From IMG/VR virus record IMGVR_UViG_2713896776_000004: a stretch of 7,927 bases of DNA. One strand, given 5' to 3'. This document shows positions 1-7,927 of the stretch, one piece after another; the stretch's first letter is position 1, and each line of letters opens with the position of its first letter. The notes beneath the pieces are model-generated. The model searched no databases and was not told the DNA's origin. It was given only the letters and a program-made list of their open reading frames with translations. Source of the stretch: a virus. Its lineage: Duplodnaviria; Heunggongvirae; Uroviricota; Caudoviricetes. A program made the position numbers and the translations under genes.

Positions 1-60
1 GACAAAGTCATCGGGCATTATCTGAACATAAAACACTATCAATAAGTTGGAGTCATTACC
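1..60 (+). mobile_element. IS1 terminal fragment: 3' end of insB plus right inverted repeat
   Basis: Frame 1 of nt 1-45 reads DKVIGHYLNIKHYQ*, which I recognise as the InsB C-terminus. The sequence ends ...AATAAGTTGGAGTCATTACC at nt 60, the IS1 terminal inverted repeat. Confidence 0.9.
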
Positions 61-150
61 GGCATCTTCAGTAAATACTGGGTTACTGATAGTGACACCA
101 ATTTCAAAACAACCTTCAGACGTATTAACGTTTGGTAATAACGTTTTCAT
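61..150 (-). pseudogene. dicB: dicB 5' fragment (codons 1-30), truncated by the IS1 end
   Basis: The reverse complement of 61-150 starts at ATG (148-150) and reads MKTLLPNVNTSEGCFEIGVTISNPVFTEDA, matching the DicB N-terminus as I remember it. The frame runs straight into the IS1 terminus at nt 60. A GAGGA Shine-Dalgarno lies at 158-162 on the - strand. Confidence 0.7.
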
Positions 151-167
151 TATCGCGTCCTCAACAA

Positions 168-315
168 TGAATTTTGTGATGCAGTGCCTGGTGCCTCCAG
201 GTGACGTTAACCAGTTAACAATTAACGCCGGATACAGAGAATCCACCCATAACACTGTTTTTGGTTTTAACTGTTCCGCGTGCGCTCAGCCGCATTCACC
301 ACATCACAAAATTCA
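168..315 (-). repeat. 14-bp perfect inverted repeat pair (168-181 and 302-315) flanking the dicF-dicB spacer
   Basis: TGAATTTTGTGATG at 168-181 and CATCACAAAATTCA at 302-315 are exact reverse complements. They sit just 3' of the DicF terminator and just 5' of the dicB Shine-Dalgarno. Confidence 0.5.
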
Positions 316-324
316 CTTTAAAAA

Positions 325-377
325 GGGCGGCAGAGCAGTCACGGAGTAAAACTGATACCGCCAAACGTCACCAGAAA
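325..377 (-). ncRNA. dicF: DicF small regulatory RNA (ftsZ/manX-targeting sRNA of the dicB operon)
   Basis: The reverse complement of 325-377 is TTTCTGGTGACGTTTGGCGGTATCAGTTTTACTCCGTGACTGCTCTGCCGCCC, followed by TTTTT. This matches the 53-nt DicF sequence from memory, including its GC-rich 3' stem and U-tract. Confidence 0.8.
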
Positions 378-402
378 ATTGATAACAGAGGGCGTTGCAG
401 CG

Positions 403-424
403 GGGTTGTCACTTAAGCGTATGG
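403..424 (+). repeat. Left copy of a 22-bp imperfect direct repeat (GGGTTGTCA core); also the half-site of a 9-bp inverted repeat with 431-439
   Basis: GGGTTGTCACTTAAGCGTATGG at 403-424 matches GGGTTGTCAGTTAAACTCGTGG at 1956-1977 at 17 of 22 positions, with an identical 9-mer core. TGACAACCC at 431-439 is the reverse complement of the core. Confidence 0.4.
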
Positions 425-755
425 TCAACCTGACAACCCGGTGTCCTCAACGGGGAAGGAATAACCCCGCCATACTTACCGCCGCGCCATTTCGCGGGTT
501 GCCACAACCGGAAGCGCACGGTCGACGAAAATTTAACGACAGGCTATCTATGAACCAGCTACCTCGCCGTGCGCTTTCGCGTTATGGTCTGACTTTTCAG
601 GGAAATATCCTTTCAGTAAACTGTCAGTGCCGGATGCTCACCCGTGTCCGGCGCACGCACTCCACCTCACCCGTGGAGAACTCCTTAATTACTAACCTTA
701 GCTTTGTTGATTAGCTACTAACGCGGGTAGCCGCGTGTCCACTATTGCTGGGTAA

Positions 756-1685
756 GATCAACCATCTTACGGTGAACTGATCCAGATTGATGGCTCACCT
801 CATGACTGGTTTGAAAATCGAGGCCCCAGATGTACACTGATCGTTTTCATTGATGATGCCGCCAGTGCGTTGATGGCGTTGCGTTTTGTGCCTGCTGAAA
901 CAACCCGGGCTTACATGGAAACCCTCCGGGGTTACCTTAATGATCATGGCGTACCGCTCGCTCTCTACTCTGATAGACACAGTATATTCAGGGTAAATAA
1001 CCCAGAGCGGGAAGGTGAGCTGACCCAGTTCACTCGTGCGATAAAGACACTGGGCATCGAGCCAATCCATGCCAACAGCCCGCAGGCAAAAGGGCGGGTA
1101 GAGCGCGCCAATCAGACACTACAGGACAGGCTGGTCAAAGAAATGCGGCTTCAGAATATCAGTGATATTGAAACAGCAAATGCATGGTTGCCGACTTTTA
1201 TTGAAGCCTATAACAACCGGTTCGCTACGTCGCCTCGTACTACTGATAATGCTCATCTTGATGTGCACCATTCTGAAGAGGAACTGGGTTATATCTTCAG
1301 CCTACAGGCGAAGCGCGTTCTGTCTAAAAATCTCACTTTCCAGTACAAAAGCAGTGCGTTTCAGGTACGCAGTGAGAGCCGGGGATATCGACTTAGGCAT
1401 TCGGTTGTTACTGTATGCGAGAACTTTGACGGTGAAATTAACGTTCTGTATGACGGGAAAGCGCTGGGCTGGGAAAAGTATGTTGATGGCCCGGAGCCTA
1501 TACCACTGGATGATGAAAAGAGTGTCCATGAACGAGTGGATAATGCCCGTATTGATTTACGCTCAAAATACTATGTTAAACCTAAAGCTGACCATCCCTG
1601 GCTTACGCGCCGAACGCAAAGTCATCAGCAAGTTAAGCCCCCGAAGTTACCTAAAAAGAAGCCTGATCCCGATAAAAAAGATTGA
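756..1685 (+). pseudogene. rve (integrase-core) DDE transposase remnant, N-terminal domain missing
   Basis: The open frame from 756 contains IQIDGSPHDWFE...LIVFIDDAAS...LYSDRHSIF...ANSPQAKGRVERANQTLQDRL, a D, D, E integrase-core pattern, and ends in a lysine-rich tail. An in-frame stop at 753-755 leaves no room for an N-terminal DNA-binding domain. The first ATG is at 873. The IS family is not assigned. Confidence 0.6.
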
Positions 1686-1739
1686 AACCAAGATCGATTC
1701 GGTTGAGTGCATATCCATTCATAGGGTAGATTCTTAAGT

Positions 1740-1805
1740 CGCGTTTCTGGTGTTCATTTTCGGGTGGTTTGTTACTTGTTTTACCGGGGATATGCCAGAA
1801 ACGCG
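1740..1805. repeat. 11-bp perfect inverted repeat with a 44-nt spacer, just after the transposase remnant
   Basis: CGCGTTTCTGG at 1740-1750 and CCAGAAACGCG at 1795-1805 are exact reverse complements. Confidence 0.4.
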
Positions 1806-1955
1806 CTGAGTCAGTCTGGGCGGTGCGCGTAATGAGGCGTTATGGTAAATAGCCTATGCTAATGTCCGCTAAGAGCAAGAAGCGGAAGTTGGCAGTTTTG
1901 TGGACTGTCCCCACAAAAGTGACTACAGAAATAGTTGCAATTCATAATTGATCAT

Positions 1956-1977
1956 GGGTTGTCAGTTAAACTCGTGG
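1956..1977 (+). repeat. Right copy of the 22-bp imperfect direct repeat (GGGTTGTCA core)
   Basis: See the 403-424 entry; 17 of 22 positions are identical, including the 9-mer GGGTTGTCA. Confidence 0.4.
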
Positions 1978-2084
1978 CGATTTAAATAGACTAATTGGGA
2001 GTGCGTCCATTACTTATATCTTGTAATGTTAACTATCAGAAATGATACAAAGATAATATGTCTTTAAAGAAAAGGCTGATGGCG

Positions 2085-2107
2085 AAAAGTGGCCCGATGA
2101 GGGCCAC
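2085..2107 (-). terminator. Putative intrinsic terminator downstream of flxA
   Basis: A 7-bp perfect stem GTGGCCC/GGGCCAC with a 5-nt loop lies at 2089-2107. On the - strand it is followed by TTTTCGCC, a short U-run, so it is probably weak. Confidence 0.4.
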
Positions 2108-2121
2108 AATACGGCTGTCAC

Positions 2122-2454
2122 TTAGACGTAAATATCAATGGTGCCAGCGGTATTTGTATCGTCTTTTTTCTCTTCTTTTTTATCAGGCTGAACTGTCGCG
2201 TCTTCATTCTTTTTCTCTGCCTGCTGCCTTAACAACTGCTCCAGTTGAGCCCAGAGGCTTTCAATTTGCTTCTGTACCAATGCAGCCATTTCTTTTTTCT
2301 GCTGTGTCGTCATCCCCTCTTCCGATGAGATTTTCCCAAGCTTTTCAGTCAGCACCTGAATTTGTCTTGTGATTTTGGCTATTTCTGATGTTCCTTCCGG
2401 GGCGGAGTTGTTTGAAATAACGGTTGAGGTATTTCCCTGAATTGTGACAGACAT
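2122..2454 (-). CDS. flxA: FlxA (FliA-regulated prophage protein)
   Basis: The 110-aa translation MSVTIQGNTSTVISNNSAPEGTSEIAKITRQ...TAGTIDIYV matches FlxA of the Qin prophage as I recall it. A GGAG Shine-Dalgarno precedes the ATG and a sigma28 promoter lies upstream. Confidence 0.9.
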   Translation of the reverse strand: MSVTIQGNTSTVISNNSAPEGTSEIAKITRQIQVLTEKLGKISSEEGMTTQQKKEMAALVQKQIESLWAQLEQLLRQQAEKKNEDATVQPDKKEEKKDDTNTAGTIDIYV

Positions 2455-2477
2455 AGATTTCTCCTTTTAAAAAAGCA

Positions 2478-2504
2478 CTATCGGCATGAACAAAAAAATC
2501 TTTA
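2478..2504 (-). promoter_or_regulatory. sigma28 (FliA) class-3 flagellar-type promoter for flxA
   Basis: The - strand reads TAAAGATT, then an 11-nt spacer, then GCCGATAG. The consensus is TAAAGTTT-N11-GCCGATAA. It sits about 25-50 nt upstream of the flxA start. Confidence 0.75.
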
Positions 2505-2656
2505 ATCGTATTTCTTGTGTCATTAATTGTTTGATGTTCAGATTGTTTTCCTCGCGGGCTGGCGCGCCTCAGAAAGTAAAGCTTGTTGACAGGGGTAAAC
2601 GTTCGGCAATAATTTTCTGCCGCATGCGGGTGTTGCATAAAACGTGTTACGTTCCT

Positions 2657-2962
2657 TTATCGACAGGTCAGGTCACCGCTCACCCGCCGACGAGAAAGCA
2701 ACACTGACATGCTAAAGCAAAAAATAGATGAATAAGTTGAGTTGTGCATATGTAGCCTGACCGTCACAAAGTATATGGTGTCTGTACCAGTAAGATGATG
2801 GCCGGACTCTTTAAAAACGAGCTGACCTGCACAATACAGGATGGACTTAGCAATGGCTGCTCCTGGCAGAAAGCGGACAGTGATCACCGTTCTTACGACT
2901 ACTTTCTGACTTCCTTCGTGACTTGCCCTAAGCATGTTGTAGTGCGATACTTGTAATGACAT
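2657..2962 (-). CDS. Doubtful 101-aa ORF, possibly the ydfV-equivalent reading frame
   Basis: This is a 101-aa ORF between flxA and relB, co-directional with flxA. Its length and position fit my memory of ydfV in K-12. The composition is poor (Ser/Arg/Val-rich) and the start codon lies inside the relBE operator, so it may not be expressed. Confidence 0.25.
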   Translation of the reverse strand: MSLQVSHYNMLRASHEGSQKVVVRTVITVRFLPGAAIAKSILYCAGQLVFKESGHHLTGTDTIYFVTVRLHMHNSTYSSIFCFSMSVLLSRRRVSGDLTCR

Positions 2963-2986
2963 TTGTAATTACAAGAGGTGTAAGAC
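2923..2986 (+). promoter_or_regulatory. relBE promoter and operator (relO)
   Basis: Operator repeats TTGTAAT-gacat-TTGTAATTACAA lie at 2951-2974; the last 12 nt are a perfect palindrome. A candidate -35 TTGCCC (2923-2928) and -10 GATACT (2946-2951) are 17 nt apart. The promoter elements are tentative. Confidence 0.6.
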
Positions 2987-3226
2987 ATGGGTAGCATTAA
3001 CCTGCGTATTGACGATGAACTTAAAGCGCGTTCTTACGCCGCGCTTGAAAAAATGGGTGTAACTCCTTCTGAAGCGCTTCGTCTCATGCTCGAGTATATC
3101 GCTGACAATGAACGCTTGCCGTTCAAACAGACACTCCTGAGTGATGAAGATGCTGAACTTGTGGAGATAGTGAAAGAACGGCTTCGTAATCCTAAGCCAG
3201 TACGTGTGACGCTGGATGAACTCTGA
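2987..3226 (+). CDS. relB: RelB antitoxin
   Basis: The 79-aa translation MGSINLRIDDELKARSYAALEKMGVTPSEALRLMLEYIADNERLPFKQTLLSDEDAELVEIVKERLRNPKPVRVTLDEL is near-identical to E. coli RelB from memory. Its stop overlaps the relE start (TGATG). Confidence 0.95.
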   Translation: MGSINLRIDDELKARSYAALEKMGVTPSEALRLMLEYIADNERLPFKQTLLSDEDAELVEIVKERLRNPKPVRVTLDEL

Positions 3227-3513
3227 TGGCGTATTTTCTGGATTTTGACGAGCGGGCACTAAAGGAATGGCGAAAGCTGGGCTCGACGGTACGTGAACAG
3301 TTGAAAAAGAAGCTGGTTGAAGTACTTGAGTCACCCCGGATTGAAGCAAACAAGCTCCGTGGTATGCCTGATTGTTACAAGATTAAGCTCCGGTCTTCAG
3401 GCTATCGCCTTGTATACCAGGTTATAGACGAGAAAGTTGTCGTTTTCGTGATTTCTGTTGGGAAAAGAGAACGCTCGGAAGTATATAGCGAGGCGGTCAA
3501 ACGCATTCTCTGA
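3226..3513 (+). CDS. relE: RelE mRNA-interferase toxin
   Basis: The 95-aa translation MAYFLDFDERALKEWRKLGSTVREQLKKKL...VISVGKRERSEVYSEAVKRIL matches RelE. It is translationally coupled to relB. Confidence 0.95.
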   Translation: MAYFLDFDERALKEWRKLGSTVREQLKKKLVEVLESPRIEANKLRGMPDCYKIKLRSSGYRLVYQVIDEKVVVFVISVGKRERSEVYSEAVKRIL

Positions 3514-3584
3514 ACCAAAGCATGACATCTCTGTTTCGCACCGAAGGTGACACTTCTGCTTTGCGTTGACAGGAGAAGCAGGCT

Positions 3585-3740
3585 ATGAAGCAGCAAAAGG
3601 CGATGTTAATCGCCCTGATCGTCATCTGTTTAACCGTCATAGTGACGGCACTGGTAACGAGGAAAGACCTCTGCGAGGTACGAATCCGAACCGGCCAGAC
3701 GGAGGTCGCTGTCTTCACAGCTTACGAACCTGAGGAGTAA
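3585..3740 (+). CDS. hokD: HokD (RelF), Hok-family small membrane toxin
   Basis: This 51-aa ORF is below the ORF-track size cutoff. It reads MKQQKAMLIALIVICLTVIVTALVTRKDLCEVRIRTGQTEVAVFTAYEPEE, with a hydrophobic helix and the Hok C-terminal motif. An AGGAG lies 11 nt upstream of the ATG. Confidence 0.9.
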   Translation: MKQQKAMLIALIVICLTVIVTALVTRKDLCEVRIRTGQTEVAVFTAYEPEE

Positions 3741-3808
3741 GAGACTCGGCGAGTGAGAAATCCCTCGCCACCTCTGATGTGGCAGGCATCCTCAACGCAC
3801 CCGCACTT

Positions 3809-3840
3809 AACCCGCTTCGGCGGGTTTTTGTTTTTATTTT
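3809..3840 (+). terminator. Intrinsic terminator of the relB-relE-hokD operon
   Basis: The stem is CCCGC-ttcg-GCGGG, followed by TTTTTGTTTTTATTTT. Confidence 0.8.
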
Positions 3841-3956
3841 CAACGCATTTGAAGTTCTGGATGGTGCCGGAATAGAATCAAAAATACTTAAGTAGCGCGC
3901 AGGGATAAGAGGGATGGTCCCTTAAAGGGGAGAGCTAATTATCCGGAAGGATTCTG

Positions 3957-4208
3957 ATGATGAACATCGAAGAACTGCGTAAAATTTTTTGTGAAGATGG
4001 CCTCTATGCTGTGTGCGTTGAAAATGGAAATATTGCTAGTCATTACCGCATTGTGTGTTTGCAAAAAAATGGGGCTGCGTTAATTAATTATGTGGATGCC
4101 CGAGTGACGGACGGATTTATCTTGCGCGACGGTGAGTTTGTCACTTCATTACAGGCATTGAAAGAGATCGGAATAAAAGCTGGCTTTTCTGCTTTTTCAG
4201 AAGAATAA
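3957..4208 (+). CDS. rem: Rem-like prophage protein of unknown function
   Basis: The 83-aa translation MMNIEELRKIFCEDGLYAVCVENGNIASHYRIVCLQKNGAALINYVDARVTDGFILRDGEFVTSLQALKEIGIKAGFSAFSEE fits my memory of Qin Rem. It has a GGAAGG ribosome-binding site, is AT-rich, and sits immediately downstream of hokD as in K-12. Confidence 0.75.
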   Translation: MMNIEELRKIFCEDGLYAVCVENGNIASHYRIVCLQKNGAALINYVDARVTDGFILRDGEFVTSLQALKEIGIKAGFSAFSEE

Positions 4209-4274
4209 ACTCATCTACAATCTTGCGCGGGGCTGAACTCCCGCTGAGTAACACCGTGCCACCGGAGAAAACCG

Positions 4275-4553
4275 ATGGCACGCAACGCAAAATATTACAA
4301 TCATGATAATTCGACCGTTCTTGCCCACACGCACGAGCGGTATTCTCACGCATTTAAGTCAGACTGGTACCAGCATCCCCCATGCACTGAAGAACAGGCC
4401 GAATGGCTCATTCAGTGTTACCGCAGGCGCGGATGCGAGGTTAAAAAAGCCCTTAGCCTCGACTACCGTCACTGGATAATCTCCGTCAGGCTTCCTTACT
4501 CCGAACGCCCACCGCGTCCGTCCCGCACATTCCAGCAACGCATCTGGAGGTAA
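4275..4553 (+). CDS. Hypothetical small Cys/His-containing prophage protein (92 aa), translationally coupled to the DUF968 gene
   Basis: A GGAG lies 7 nt upstream of the ATG at 4275. The translation MARNAKYYNHDNSTVLAHTHERYSHAFKSDWYQHPPCTEEQAEWLIQCYRRRGCEVKK... has no stops. Its TAA (4551-4553) sits between the GGAGG and the GTG start of the next gene. I could not assign a family. Confidence 0.5.
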   Translation: MARNAKYYNHDNSTVLAHTHERYSHAFKSDWYQHPPCTEEQAEWLIQCYRRRGCEVKKALSLDYRHWIISVRLPYSERPPRPSRTFQQRIWR

Positions 4554-4554
4554 C

Positions 4555-5604
4555 GTGCGGGTATTACTTCGACCTGTTCTGGTACCGGAACTCGGGCTGG
4601 TGATCGTTAAGCCGGGCCGTGAACCCATGCCGGTATTCCACAATACCCGGTTACTGGTGGAGCCGGAACCGAAAAGCATGCGTAATCTGCCGTCCGGGGT
4701 CGTTCCTGCCGCTCGCCAGCCGCTGGTGGAAGACAAAACATTGCTGCCGTTTTTCAGTAACGCACGGGTGATTCGTGCTGCTGGTGGTGCTGGTGCATTG
4801 TCTGACTGGCTGTTGCGCCATATTAAATCCTGCCAGTGGCCACACGGCGATTATCATCACAGCGAAACCGTCATTCACCGTTATGGTACCGGCGCAATGG
4901 TGTTGTGCTGGCACTGCGACAACCAGCTGCGTGACCAGACATCCGAATCACTCGAGCAACTAGCTCATCAAAACCTGTCAGCATGGATGATTGACGTCAT
5001 CGGTCACGCAATAAGCGGTACGCAGGAGCGTGAATTATCTCTGGCTGAATTATCCTGGTGGGCGGTCCGCAATCAGGTGGCGGACGCGCTACCGGAAGCG
5101 GTATTACGTCGTTCGCTGGGGTTGCGTGCGGAAAAAATCCGCTCAATGTACCGTGAAAGCGACATCGTACCGGGAGAGCAGACCGCCACCAGCATACTGA
5201 AACAGCGCACAAAAAATCTTGCACCGTTGCCTCACGCCCACCAGCAACAAAACCCATCACAAGAAAAGACGGTGGTAAGCATCACCGTTGATCCAGAGTC
5301 TCCGGAATCTTTCATGAAGCTGCCTAAACGTCACCGTTGGGTTAAGGAGAAATACACACGCTGGGTTAAGACACAGCCGTGTGCTTGCTGCGGTATGCCA
5401 GCCGACGATCCGCATCATCTGATTGGTCACGGGCAGGGCGGAATGGGAACCAAAGCACATGATCTCTTTGTGTTGCCTTTGTGCAGAAAGCATCACGACG
5501 AGTTGCATACGGATACCGTGGCATTTGAAGAGAAGTATGGCTCCCAACTGGAGCTGATTTTTCGATTTATCGATCGCGCGCTGGCAATTGGTGTGCTGGC
5601 CTAA
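4555..5604 (+). CDS. ydfU: DUF968-family prophage protein with a C-terminal HNH-like motif (YdfU-like)
   Basis: The 349-aa ORF has a GTG start with GGAGG 4 nt upstream. The C-terminus contains CACCG...[10 protein letters not shown]...[10 protein letters not shown] (a Cys pair, His-His and H-x3-H), typical of a beta-beta-alpha-metal HNH fold. A second Cys/His cluster ([11 protein letters not shown]...LCWHCDN) lies near residues 93-122. The size and position after rem match K-12 ydfU. Confidence 0.8.
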
Positions 5605-5621
5605 TTTTGTGGAGTAAGTTG

Positions 5622-5999
5622 ATGCGTGATATTCAGATGGTTCTTGAGCGTTGGGGGGCATGGGCTGCTAATAATCATGAAGATGTGACCTGGTCGTCCA
5701 TTGCCGCCGGTTTTAAGGGATTAATTCCTTCAAAAGTAAGATCTCGTCCGCAATGCTGTGACGATGACGCGATGATCATTTGTGAATGTATGGCTCGCCT
5801 GAAAAAAAACAACAGCGATTTACATGATTTATTGGTGGACTATTATGTCGGCGGCATGACTTTTATGGCGCTTGCACGTAAGCATGGGCGATCTGATTGT
5901 TGGGTTGGCAGGATGCTCCAGAAAGCTGAGGGCGTAGTGGAGGGCATGCTGATGGTGTTGGATCTCCGATTGGAGATGGATGCTGATTGTTCGAAATAA
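5622..5999 (+). CDS. Late-gene antiterminator Q (small phage-21/QuuD-like class)
   Basis: ATG at 5622 with GGAG 6 nt upstream gives 125 aa. The translation [34 protein letters not shown]...[37 protein letters not shown]... matches my memory of the DLP12 QuuD / phage 21 Q family. The ORF-track start at 5607 is a TTG that I consider less likely. Confidence 0.75.
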
Positions 6000-6011
6000 T
6001 TAAAGGAAAAG

Positions 6012-6040
6012 TTGCTGTCTGATTTTCATTAGTCTAACAT
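6012..6040 (+). promoter_or_regulatory. Candidate late promoter PR' (Q-utilisation region)
   Basis: -35 TTGCTG (6012-6017), a 17-nt spacer, then -10 TAACAT (6035-6040). It lies 13 nt after the Q stop and about 60 nt upstream of a strong terminator, as expected for a PR'/qut/tR' module. Confidence 0.4.
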
Positions 6041-6097
6041 TTTAAATGTTGGAATCGCAACGTAGTTATTATCATATAACAGCTTGTTTCCTGATTT

Positions 6098-6128
6098 AGC
6101 CAGCCTCCCCAAAGGCTGGTTTTTTTCT
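6098..6128 (+). terminator. tR'-like intrinsic terminator downstream of Q
   Basis: AGCCAGCC-tcccc aaa-GGCTGGTT stem followed by TTTTTTT. Confidence 0.75.
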
Positions 6129-6154
6129 AATAAGTATCATTTCGGGTGGGGATT

Positions 6155-6679
6155 TTATTGTTTAACCCATAATAGTTCATTGACATTGAATCCCAACTTT
6201 TGAGCGGTACGCACATAGTCTGCTTTTACATTATCTGGAATAGTTTGGGTCCTTGCCAGAATCCATAGGTATTCTCTGTTCGGACCACTGACAAGAGCAT
6301 ACTTATACTCATCATCCAGTTTGATTACATTATAGCCACCATAGAAGGGGCCAAAAAACGAAACTTTCAACGCTGCAGTTTTAGTATCTCCAGTAAAGTA
6401 TGCTTTACCTTCGCTCTCGCTCCATTTGTTTTTCGTTGGATCGTATCCACGGTTAAGTACGCGAATCCCTCCGTCGTTCCGTTTTTCATAAGTAGCGCTG
6501 ACCTGTTCCAGACCACGTTCGAACCAGTTCTCGAGGCGAGCTATTTCATACCATTTTCCGAGGTAGCGGTTGGCGTCAAAATTTGTAATCGGCTGCACAC
6601 CTTTAGGTGGTGTCGGGGCCTTACATGCTATAAGAGTGAAAGAGAGTGCAATGCCAGTCAACACAGGCCATAACTTCAT
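6155..6679 (-). CDS. Blc-family bacterial lipocalin, predicted outer-membrane lipoprotein
   Basis: The 174-aa translation has a signal peptide with lipobox LIAC (Cys19). Motifs NFDANRYLGKWYEIARLENWFERGLEQVSATY and GKAYFTGDTKTAALKVSFFGPFYGGYNVIKLD...YLWILARTQTI align with E. coli Blc at roughly half of positions, so it is divergent. The gene is AT-rich. Confidence 0.85.
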   Translation of the reverse strand: MKLWPVLTGIALSFTLIACKAPTPPKGVQPITNFDANRYLGKWYEIARLENWFERGLEQVSATYEKRNDGGIRVLNRGYDPTKNKWSESEGKAYFTGDTKTAALKVSFFGPFYGGYNVIKLDDEYKYALVSGPNREYLWILARTQTIPDNVKADYVRTAQKLGFNVNELLWVKQ

Positions 6680-6871
6680 AATAAATCCTGTACTTTTGAT
6701 AGTTGAGAGTAAGTATGAAAGATAGATGAGTACGACCGATCACTTAAAGAACTTTCCTACTATATTAGGAATAGTCAATAACAGAAAAATTGTCAGTGAT
6801 GAAGCCAGAAAGGCAATTTAGTCCGTGCACTACAAAGTTTATGTGTTAATGAATTAGTCAAGGGGGAGGAA

Positions 6872-7831
6872 ATGATAAAAAAACCTGTGATTGGGATCAG
6901 CGGTTGTTTGGGCGGTTCTGCTGTTCGTTTTGATGGTGGTCACAAAAGAGATGACTTTTTAATGGACAAATTAGTGGAATGGGTAACATTCAGACCAGTA
7001 TGTCCGGAAATGGCTATAGGGCTGCCAGTTCCGCGTCCTGCTCTACGACTTGTGCGCTCGAAGCAAGGAAATATACGGATGTGTTTCAGCCACGACCAGA
7101 ATGAGGATGTGACAGAGAGAATGACAGAGTTTAGTCGTTCTTATATGGACAAATTAAAGGATGTATCGGGGTTTGTGGTTTGTGCTAAATCTCCCAGCTG
7201 TGGCATGGAGCGCGTGCGTGTCTATGATGAAAATGGTAATCGAGGTCGTAAAGATGGAGTGGGACTATTTACGAGCACTTTGATGGAAAAGTTTTCCTGG
7301 CTACCGGTTGAAGAGGATGGGCGATTACATGATCCAGTGCTTCGTGAGAATTTTATTGAAAGAGTTTTTGCTTTGCATGAGCTCAATCACCTTTACAAGG
7401 AGAAATTATCAAGAAGAGAGTTATTAGCTTTTCATAGTCGTTATAAGCTTCAGTTGTTGGCGCATAGCCAGGCAGGCTATAAAGATATGGGACCATTTGT
7501 GGCTGCAATACACGAGTGGGCGGACCTTGAATCATACTTTGAGGTGTATCGTGATAATCTGATGGCGATTCTCAGAAAACCAGCATCACGTAAAAATCAC
7601 ACGAATGTGCTGATGCATATACAGGGGTATTTTAGTAATTACTTAAGTACACGCCAGCGTAAAGAGTTGAGCGAGGTTATACTTAACTATCGCTTTGGCA
7701 CATTGCCTCTTCTTGCGCCGTTGACTCTGCTGAAGCATTATCTGGGTGAGTATCCTAATGATTACTTGCTTACACAGAATTACTTCGATCCCTATCCGGA
7801 AGAACTGGCTCTAAGACTGATGGTGAATTAA
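6872..7831 (+). CDS. DUF523 (TudS-like Fe-S domain) - DUF1722 (YbgA-like) fusion protein
   Basis: A strong Shine-Dalgarno GGGGGAGG precedes the ATG at 6872. The 319-aa protein begins MIKKPVIGISGCLGGSAVRFDGGHKRDDF, with conserved Cys at 12, 44 (PVCPEM) and 104/110 (CAKSPSCG). The C-terminal half resembles YbgA/DUF1722. The gene is AT-rich. Confidence 0.8.
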   Translation: MIKKPVIGISGCLGGSAVRFDGGHKRDDFLMDKLVEWVTFRPVCPEMAIGLPVPRPALRLVRSKQGNIRMCFSHDQNEDVTERMTEFSRSYMDKLKDVSGFVVCAKSPSCGMERVRVYDENGNRGRKDGVGLFTSTLMEKFSWLPVEEDGRLHDPVLRENFIERVFALHELNHLYKEKLSRRELLAFHSRYKLQLLAHSQAGYKDMGPFVAAIHEWADLESYFEVYRDNLMAILRKPASRKNHTNVLMHIQGYFSNYLSTRQRKELSEVILNYRFGTLPLLAPLTLLKHYLGEYPNDYLLTQNYFDPYPEELALRLMVN

Positions 7832-7867
7832 CTGTATGCGATATCATCTGAAAGTGATGAGTTCCTG

Positions 7868-7927
7868 GGTAATGACTCCAACTTATTGATAGTGTTTTAT
7901 GTTCAGATAATGCCCGATGACTTTGTC
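7868..7927 (-). mobile_element. IS1 terminal fragment (right inverted repeat end), inverted relative to the copy at 1-60
   Basis: GGTAATGACTCCAACTTATTGATAG... at 7868-7927 is the exact reverse complement of nt 1-60. Confidence 0.9.

Follow-up and report, generated by a model that had tools for sequence, protein, structure and literature searches.

Desulfidases related to the prophage protein

One relative of the protein described here is TudS (PDB 6z92 and related entries), a single domain of ~160 aa (150–166) that acts on free 2- or 4-thiouracil or on 4-thio-UMP. Proteins in which a TudS domain is fused to a DUF1722 domain form the RudS family (Jamontas et al., Nucleic Acids Res 2024, PMC11417400). 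RudS is a [4Fe-4S] desulfidase that converts 4-thiouridine (s4U) in tRNA to uridine, and its overexpression in E. coli lowered tRNA s4U 5- to 26-fold (PMC11417400). Activity depends on three cysteines and on the [4Fe-4S] cluster being intact, and it was abolished when E51, R60, S111, or S113 of the Pseudomonas putida enzyme RudS_KT was replaced by methionine (PMC11417400). The DUF1722 domain of RudS_KT was reported to touch the tRNA anticodon arm, and the same paper describes a reduced UVA growth delay in E. coli overexpressing this protein (PMC11417400). All published RudS activity comes from overexpression.

One of the enzymes assayed is viral. RudS_vir is gp66 (H3V29_gp66) of Escherichia phage 1H12 (NC_049947), with Cys12, Cys44, and Cys110 (PMC11417400, Table 1). 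Its expression in E. coli lowered tRNA s4U, as did that of every RudS variant tested; relative to its protein level it was a weaker tRNA desulfidase, and on free 4-thiouracil it gave the shortest lag among the RudS proteins tested (PMC11417400). YbgA of E. coli K-12 (b0707) is a stand-alone DUF1722 protein of 169 aa without a catalytic domain, and it stayed at the empty-vector level in the thiouracil growth assay (PMC11417400). The ybgA gene lies upstream of phr and overlaps its start, so the first-pass annotation was right to place it beside the photolyase gene.

Published work already covers the RudS family and its chemistry, including its presence in siphoviruses and the activity shown by a near-identical phage orthologue (PMC11417400). 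E. coli is said there to be without RudS. A literature search by protein accession, or for work on rudS specifically in prophages, returned nothing besides this paper.

The rudS gene and its product

We analyzed a 7,927-nt stretch of DNA (IMG/VR record IMGVR_UViG_2713896776_000004; hereafter, the window), which is a piece of a defective Qin-type lambdoid prophage at the rspAB-ydfJ site. The features discussed are listed in Table 1. The rudS reading frame runs uninterrupted through 319 codons from an ATG start to a TAA stop, and the gene has a 100% DNA match that is annotated in E. coli EC09 and S30. RefSeq labels the protein "YbgA family protein" (WP_000592549.1), and the gene falls in PHROGs family 3275, "unknown function."

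Table 1. Coordinates and strands of the features discussed, in window positions
Feature	Position	Strand	Basis or remark
Antiterminator Q (PF06530 family)	5622..5999	+	86% identical to K-12 DLP12 QuuD
Strong intrinsic terminator	6098..6128	+	9-bp stem + T7; ~100 nt after Q stop
Blc-type outer-membrane lipocalin lipoprotein gene	6155..6679	-	PF08212, E = 7.5e-43
Divergent blc-rudS intergenic region	6680..6871	.	Promoter and LexA scans
Shine-Dalgarno AAGGGGGAGG	6860..6869	+	Anti-SD duplex −11.3 kcal/mol
rudS, 319-aa TudS-DUF1722 fusion	6872..7831 (including stop codon)	+	ORF, Pfam, 100% DNA match
TudS/DUF523 catalytic domain	6890..7318	+	Residues 7–149; C12, C44, C110; E46, R55, S107, S109
DUF1722 domain	7445..7798	+	Residues 192–309, all-helical; PF08349
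IS1 terminus	7868..7927	-	Begins 36 nt after rudS stop

The first-pass annotation had described the gene as a fusion of a TudS-like DUF523 half, bearing the cysteine pattern of that family, and a YbgA-like DUF1722 half. Each part of this description was upheld. Pfam matched PF04463 (2-thiour_desulf, formerly DUF523; E = 5.8e-40) and PF08349 (E = 9.4e-40) over the residues given in Table 1, both with scores far over the gathering cut-offs. The C-terminal 152 residues were 49% identical to K-12 YbgA. Two further models scored below their thresholds: a TudS-related NCBIfam model gave 17.7 bits against a cut-off of 130, and the YbgA equivalog NF007549 gave 189.1 bits against 237, matching only residues 161–315.

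The alignment paired C12, C44, and C110 with TudS C10, C43, and C104, and the motifs C12-L-G-G, C44-P-E46, P-R55, and S107-P-S109-C110-G lined up with the TudS cluster ligands. TudS 6z92 was the sole solved structure reached by sequence (E = 8e-4 with the single sequence, E = 3.1e-15 with a family profile of 107 members). Among 141 diverse family sequences (the query plus 140 representatives, 34–56% identical to it), the seven residues C12, C44, C110, E46, R55, S107, and S109 were each 95–99% conserved, the three cluster cysteines at no less than 97%. By offset, C12/C44/C110 match C17/C49/C114 of RudS_KT, and E46/R55/S107/S109 match its E51/R60/S111/S113. Phage 1H12 was among the phage matches to rudS, with gp66 as the syntenic gene. 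The window protein and RudS_vir were 91.85% identical (293 of 319 residues, no gaps), and none of the 26 substitutions fell at a ligand or catalytic position. A role in thio-nucleobase or thiolated-tRNA metabolism had been called untested at first reading; this no longer stands, as the family has been characterized as RudS and so close a relative has been assayed (PMC11417400).

An AlphaFold model built from a diverse alignment of 107 sequences was of high confidence (pLDDT 96.7, pTM 0.93), with helices spanning residues 155–300. In a Foldseek search with this model, the top five hits were all TudS (probability 1.00, target TM 0.71–0.74). These five entries were the only significant PDB matches, and no solved relative of the helical C-terminal domain was found among them. 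The predicted fold of the N-terminal domain is thus that of TudS. An earlier model from a shallow alignment (52 sequences, 70–97% identity) was poor and was discarded (pLDDT 70.9, below 40 at the N-terminus); Foldseek found no significant match with it.

From its domains, ligands, catalytic residues, fold, and orthology with an assayed enzyme, we file the window protein as RudS, and it is very probably a TudS-DUF1722 tRNA 4-thiouridine desulfidase. The chemistry and the tRNA specificity that it would have are carried over, by analogy, from the literature on RudS.

The gene is AT-rich, as first described, with 43.2% G+C (GC3 40%); the whole window has 46.5% and the chromosomal orthologue of Citrobacter 54%. 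The very strong Shine-Dalgarno also proved correct: AAGGGGGAGG gave the strongest anti-SD pairing in the window, equalled by just 0.2% of the sampled 20-mers. The closest chromosomal homologues in enterobacteria (Citrobacter, Klebsiella, Serratia, Enterobacter, and Salmonella) were only 70–75% identical and had higher G+C, so the phage rudS lineage is old and distinct and was not picked up recently.

A prophage module, its distribution, and its transcription

EC09 is identical (100%) to the window from position 61 to 7867. The gene order in the window is truncated dicB, DicF RNA, an ISEsa1 transposase fragment, ydfW, flxA, ydfV, relBE, hokD, rem, a small ORF, ydfU (DUF968), Q, the Blc-type lipocalin gene on the opposite strand, and rudS, which is co-directional with Q. 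In intact relatives and in the viable phages 1H12, Lambda_2E9, and IdasGreatGrand, the genes downstream of rudS are an AraC-family gene, holin, endolysin, and spanin, in this order.

This arrangement recurred among the 80 viral loci from IMG/VR. The lipocalin, which scored 312.6 bits with NF007786 (above the cut-off of 267), was a constant partner of rudS, on the reverse strand at −193 in 79 of the 80; the flank of the other locus was too short to tell. Wherever the flank was long enough, the spacings counted from the rudS start were near-constant: −1250 for Q, about +1310 or +1366 for the AraC-like gene, and about +2230 to +2270 for the holin. The position of rudS between Q and holin, co-directional with both, was found in most of the 80 loci and in 2E9, IdasGreatGrand, 1H12, and EC09. 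The genes upstream of Q differed among the loci, as expected of lambdoid mosaics. We also considered that blc and rudS had been captured together from a chromosomal photo-stress operon. This was rejected for the Citrobacter lineage, where the second gene upstream of rudS, encoding 175 aa, had no Pfam lipocalin match and gave E = 1.8 in BLASTP.

An intact 319-aa reading frame with all the catalytic residues was present in 79 of the 80 loci, which encoded 14 protein alleles. The gene was found in 12 deposited phage genomes, in 127 IMG/VR contigs, and in 1136 of 5426 complete E. coli genomes (~21%), almost always on the chromosome. Of these 1136, 1064 had at least 80% of its length, and at least 80% of the stretch 6000–7927 (lipocalin and rudS) was present in 1042 genomes. 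A dN/dS of 0.14 between the window and 1H12 alleles indicates that rudS is under purifying selection. K-12 has no rudS; in the E. coli B lineage the gene is truncated by IS3 after nt 147, and in strain KMi012 IS1 lies inside it. The first-pass annotation had taken rudS for prophage cargo, as its place in a fixed lambdoid module bears out. The same annotation thought such a function unusual for prophage cargo, which is at odds with a module carried by about a fifth of the complete E. coli genomes.

IS1 borders the segment on both sides. Positions 1–60 are also an IS1 terminus, perfectly complementary to 7868–7927, and truncate dicB; with complementary termini at both ends, the whole 7.8-kb segment lies between two inverted IS1 copies. 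On the right, IS1 parts rudS from the genes (AraC-like and lysis) that follow it in intact relatives. The contact between rudS and IS1 noted at first reading is therefore real, and the survey of recurrence proposed there had a divided outcome. The fusion is recurrently linked to prophages, on the lambdoid module of the viral loci. A recurrent association with IS1 was rejected, since the rudS-IS1 junction is common to only ~4 of the 5426 complete genomes and an IS1 end lies near rudS in one of the 80 viral loci. The contact is incidental and reflects decay of the defective prophage, with no functional link.

Late read-through into rudS, which the first reading had suggested, is plausible. The gene is co-directional with Q, as noted, and of the two places where the late promoter may lie, only one would give read-through. 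The strong terminator after Q recurs as an exact copy in 77 of the 80 viral loci; it either serves the late operon as tR′ or ends the Q transcript. In arrangement A, pR′ may lie just after Q; the late transcript that depends on Q would then include rudS and cross blc in the antisense direction. The terminator stands at the textbook tR′ position for this arrangement; a scan of 6000–6097 gave no sigma-70-like promoter at the threshold used. In arrangement B, pR′ may lie just upstream of the holin. EC09 has a promoter-like site there (TTATCA-16-TATGAT), with a second strong terminator ~60 nt on and the holin start ~100 nt further, and in DLP12 the reported place of the Q-controlled lysis promoter is between nmpC and essD, on the downstream side of the cargo. 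Arrangement B would leave rudS dependent on a promoter of its own or on transcription continuing from the early operon.

The region upstream of rudS (6680–6871) had no sigma-70-like promoter at or over the scan threshold, a scan that leaves room for activator-dependent or alternative-sigma promoters. Because IS1 took the downstream half of the module, only arrangement A or a promoter of its own could drive rudS in the window. The Q-proximal intergenic region was present in 1113 genomes and rudS in 1136, and this covariation gives no separation of the two arrangements. Locating pR′ by k-mer comparison with K-12 DLP12 was abandoned, as the shared part was a short ATATAACAG island that is found elsewhere as well. 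A LexA box, and with it an SOS link, was also rejected: the window had three near-matches compared with 2.6 expected, and the promoter region had none.

Proposed role and comparison with known systems

If the window protein works as RudS does, C12, C44, and C110 of its TudS domain would hold a [4Fe-4S] cluster that leaves one iron free. This iron would bind the sulfur of a 4-thiouridine (s4U8/9) flipped out of the tRNA, and E46, placed by R55, S107, and S109, would activate a water molecule. In this way s4U would be desulfurated to U by hydrolysis, with no redox step. The helical DUF1722 domain would dock the tRNA anticodon arm, and on account of this docking the fusion would be expected to act on tRNA and not on the free base.

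s4U8 is a near-UV sensor whose crosslink to C13 stalls aminoacylation, causing a growth delay and accumulation of ppGpp. Erasing s4U8 should keep translation going in sunlight- or UV-stressed cells. The benefit might go to the lysogen, or to the phage during UV-triggered induction if rudS is read from the Q-dependent late transcript. We tentatively raise the possibility, which we think less likely than not, that rudS is a timed tRNA eraser: transcribed together with the lysis and late genes once Q antitermination has occurred, it would strip s4U8 in UV-induced cells, so that the crosslink growth delay and the stringent response could not throttle late protein synthesis. In a weaker version, rudS may be a lysogenic-conversion gene that makes about one-fifth of E. 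coli strains UVA-tolerant.

It is very unlikely that the enzyme acts mainly on free thio-nucleobases or nucleotides (4-thiouracil, 4-thio-UMP), salvaging or detoxifying the breakdown products of thiolated tRNA. Its catalytic domain and residues are the same as those of TudS, the short lag of RudS_vir on 4-thiouracil was seen in a uracil auxotroph, and the tRNA activity of RudS_vir looked low for its protein level; but no RudS matched the growth support given by TudS, none grew on 2-thiouracil, and the authors hold that thiouracils are not the primary substrates (PMC11417400). The lowering of tRNA s4U by all the RudS variants tested, and the retention and conservation of the fused DUF1722 domain, also speak against it. 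Given the RudS_vir results, the enzyme may nonetheless have some activity on the free base. A change of the tRNA pool unrelated to photoprotection, either in tRNA stability or in evasion of a host defence that targets tRNA, is purely speculative and seems to us extremely improbable. RudS_KT overexpression roughly halved tRNA-Ser and tRNA-Tyr in the literature, and the slot between Q and holin is one where host-acting cargo is common. Against this, tRNA genes and nucleases are absent from the module, and rudS matched no known defence or counter-defence family (0 PADLOC matches), so that a defence or anti-defence role was rejected.

The state of the prophage raises another reading, in which rudS is silent and decaying cargo, intact here by chance and with no current role. 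The segment is enclosed by inverted IS1 termini with dicB truncated, IS1 cuts rudS off from the downstream late genes, the gene itself is disrupted in KMi012 and in the B lineage, and the scan of 6680–6871 found no clear promoter of its own. This reading nevertheless has to account for a full-length reading frame with all the catalytic residues and a very strong Shine-Dalgarno, for the low dN/dS, and for the survival of the gene in so many E. coli genomes and viral loci; we consider it unlikely.

Taking rudS as a probable tRNA desulfidase gene, two points go beyond the published account (PMC11417400), both of them modest extensions. A prophage rudS is present in about 21% of complete E. coli genomes, always on the lambdoid module, and this module has the fixed order Q-blc-rudS-AraC-holin. 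Strains of E. coli may therefore differ in near-UV physiology and in tRNA s4U levels. The fixed place between Q and holin raises the question of whether removal of a host tRNA modification belongs to the induction programme of a temperate phage.

Compared with TudS, the window protein shares the fold and the active site in its N-terminal domain, and unlike TudS it is a 319-aa fusion of two domains, which would place it in the tRNA-acting branch. It has the TudS-DUF1722 architecture and the three cysteine ligands of RudS_KT (PP_0741) and of Salmonella RudS_ST (STM1389/ORF319), and RudS_ST also shares its length of 319 aa and Cys12/44/110. Chromosomal RudS genes lie in light-responsive operons that are MerR/LitR-controlled or photolyase-linked, whereas the phage copy is without such neighbours: neither the window nor the intact relatives had a MerR gene or a photolyase, a context that is typical of RudS and does not define it. 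In Citrobacter the rudS homologue ends an operon of SDR, amine oxidase, DUF1365, CFA synthase, and DUF3833 genes, which are also missing beside the phage copy.

The closest likeness is to phage 1H12. RudS_vir has the same length of 319 aa and the same Cys12, Cys44, and Cys110, and the 1H12 locus has the same order of Q, blc on the reverse strand, rudS, AraC-like gene, and holin. Whereas 1H12 is viable, the window copy belongs to a defective Qin-type prophage in which YdfU precedes Q and IS1 parts rudS from the lysis genes. With stx of 933W-type phages and nmpC of DLP12, rudS shares the slot between Q and the lysis cassette, and for stx Q-dependent read-through is established.

IS1 boundaries and the region left of rudS

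The window starts and ends with IS1 termini that are complementary to each other; therefore, an inverted IS1 pair brackets the 7,807-bp prophage segment. This arrangement resembles a composite transposon, or leaves the segment open to inversion. The left IS1 copy truncates dicB, and the DicF sRNA gene adjoins the truncated gene. The ISEsa1 transposase (IS1202-like) is marked incomplete by RefSeq in E. coli EC09, where its sequence is identical to that of the window. Two toxin-antitoxin loci of Qin are present, relB-relE of type II and hokD of type I; rem follows them, and flxA and ydfV lie upstream on the opposite strand.

Features of the window and of the comparison loci
Feature	Location	Strand	Details
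IS1 termini	window 1-60 and 7868-7927		60 nt each; 100% mutually complementary
DicF antisense sRNA	window 325-376	-	Rfam RF00039, 76.7 bits, E=4.5e-16
ISEsa1 transposase fragment	window 777-1685	+	rve_3 domain
relB-relE and hokD	window 2987-3740	+	
AraC-family HTH gene	L005:15178-15891 (EC09); L001:8152-8883 (phage Lambda_2E9)		PF12833, PF00165; PHROG 1450
Promoter-like site and strong terminator	L005:15874-15990		directly upstream of holin
Truncated rudS	L093:3501-3647		E. coli B95.deltaA
IS1-interrupted rudS	L095:2501-4237		E. coli KMi012
Salmonella rudS	L009, L010, L011; 5001-5960 or 3704-4663		73% identical
Chromosomal rudS operon	L006-L008; 1-5960		contigs with a protein assigned to Citrobacter braakii by NCBI

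rudS in other genomes

In the E. coli B lineage, IS3 truncates rudS after 147 nt, with an associated deletion that extends to the tail-fibre genes; thus, common laboratory B strains keep only a stub of the gene. The KMi012 rudS carries IS1 internally. One E. coli database protein (P0002, 403 aa) has the RudS domains joined to a GGDEF domain (PF00990); an artefact of assembly or rearrangement is the probable cause.

The Salmonella rudS lies beside ttcA; part of an integrase gene and a phage gene for a DUF1367 protein are adjacent, and neither blc nor Q was found near it in the three contigs. To judge by these neighbours, rudS appears to have another prophage-remnant setting, independent of the first. 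In the Citrobacter contigs, rudS is the final gene of an operon that encodes, in order, an SDR, an FAD amine oxidase, DUF1365, a cyclopropane-fatty-acid synthase, DUF2878, a 175-aa unknown protein, and DUF3833. A DUF3833-RudS fusion occurs in one database protein (P0006, 500 aa).

The interval between rudS and holin

Most intact versions of the module have an AraC-family gene between rudS and holin (product of 237-243 aa); in the window, IS1 separates this gene from rudS. The late promoter pR' and its terminator tR' could instead lie at the holin-proximal promoter-like site and terminator of EC09. A similar terminator precedes essD in the DLP12 prophage of K-12.
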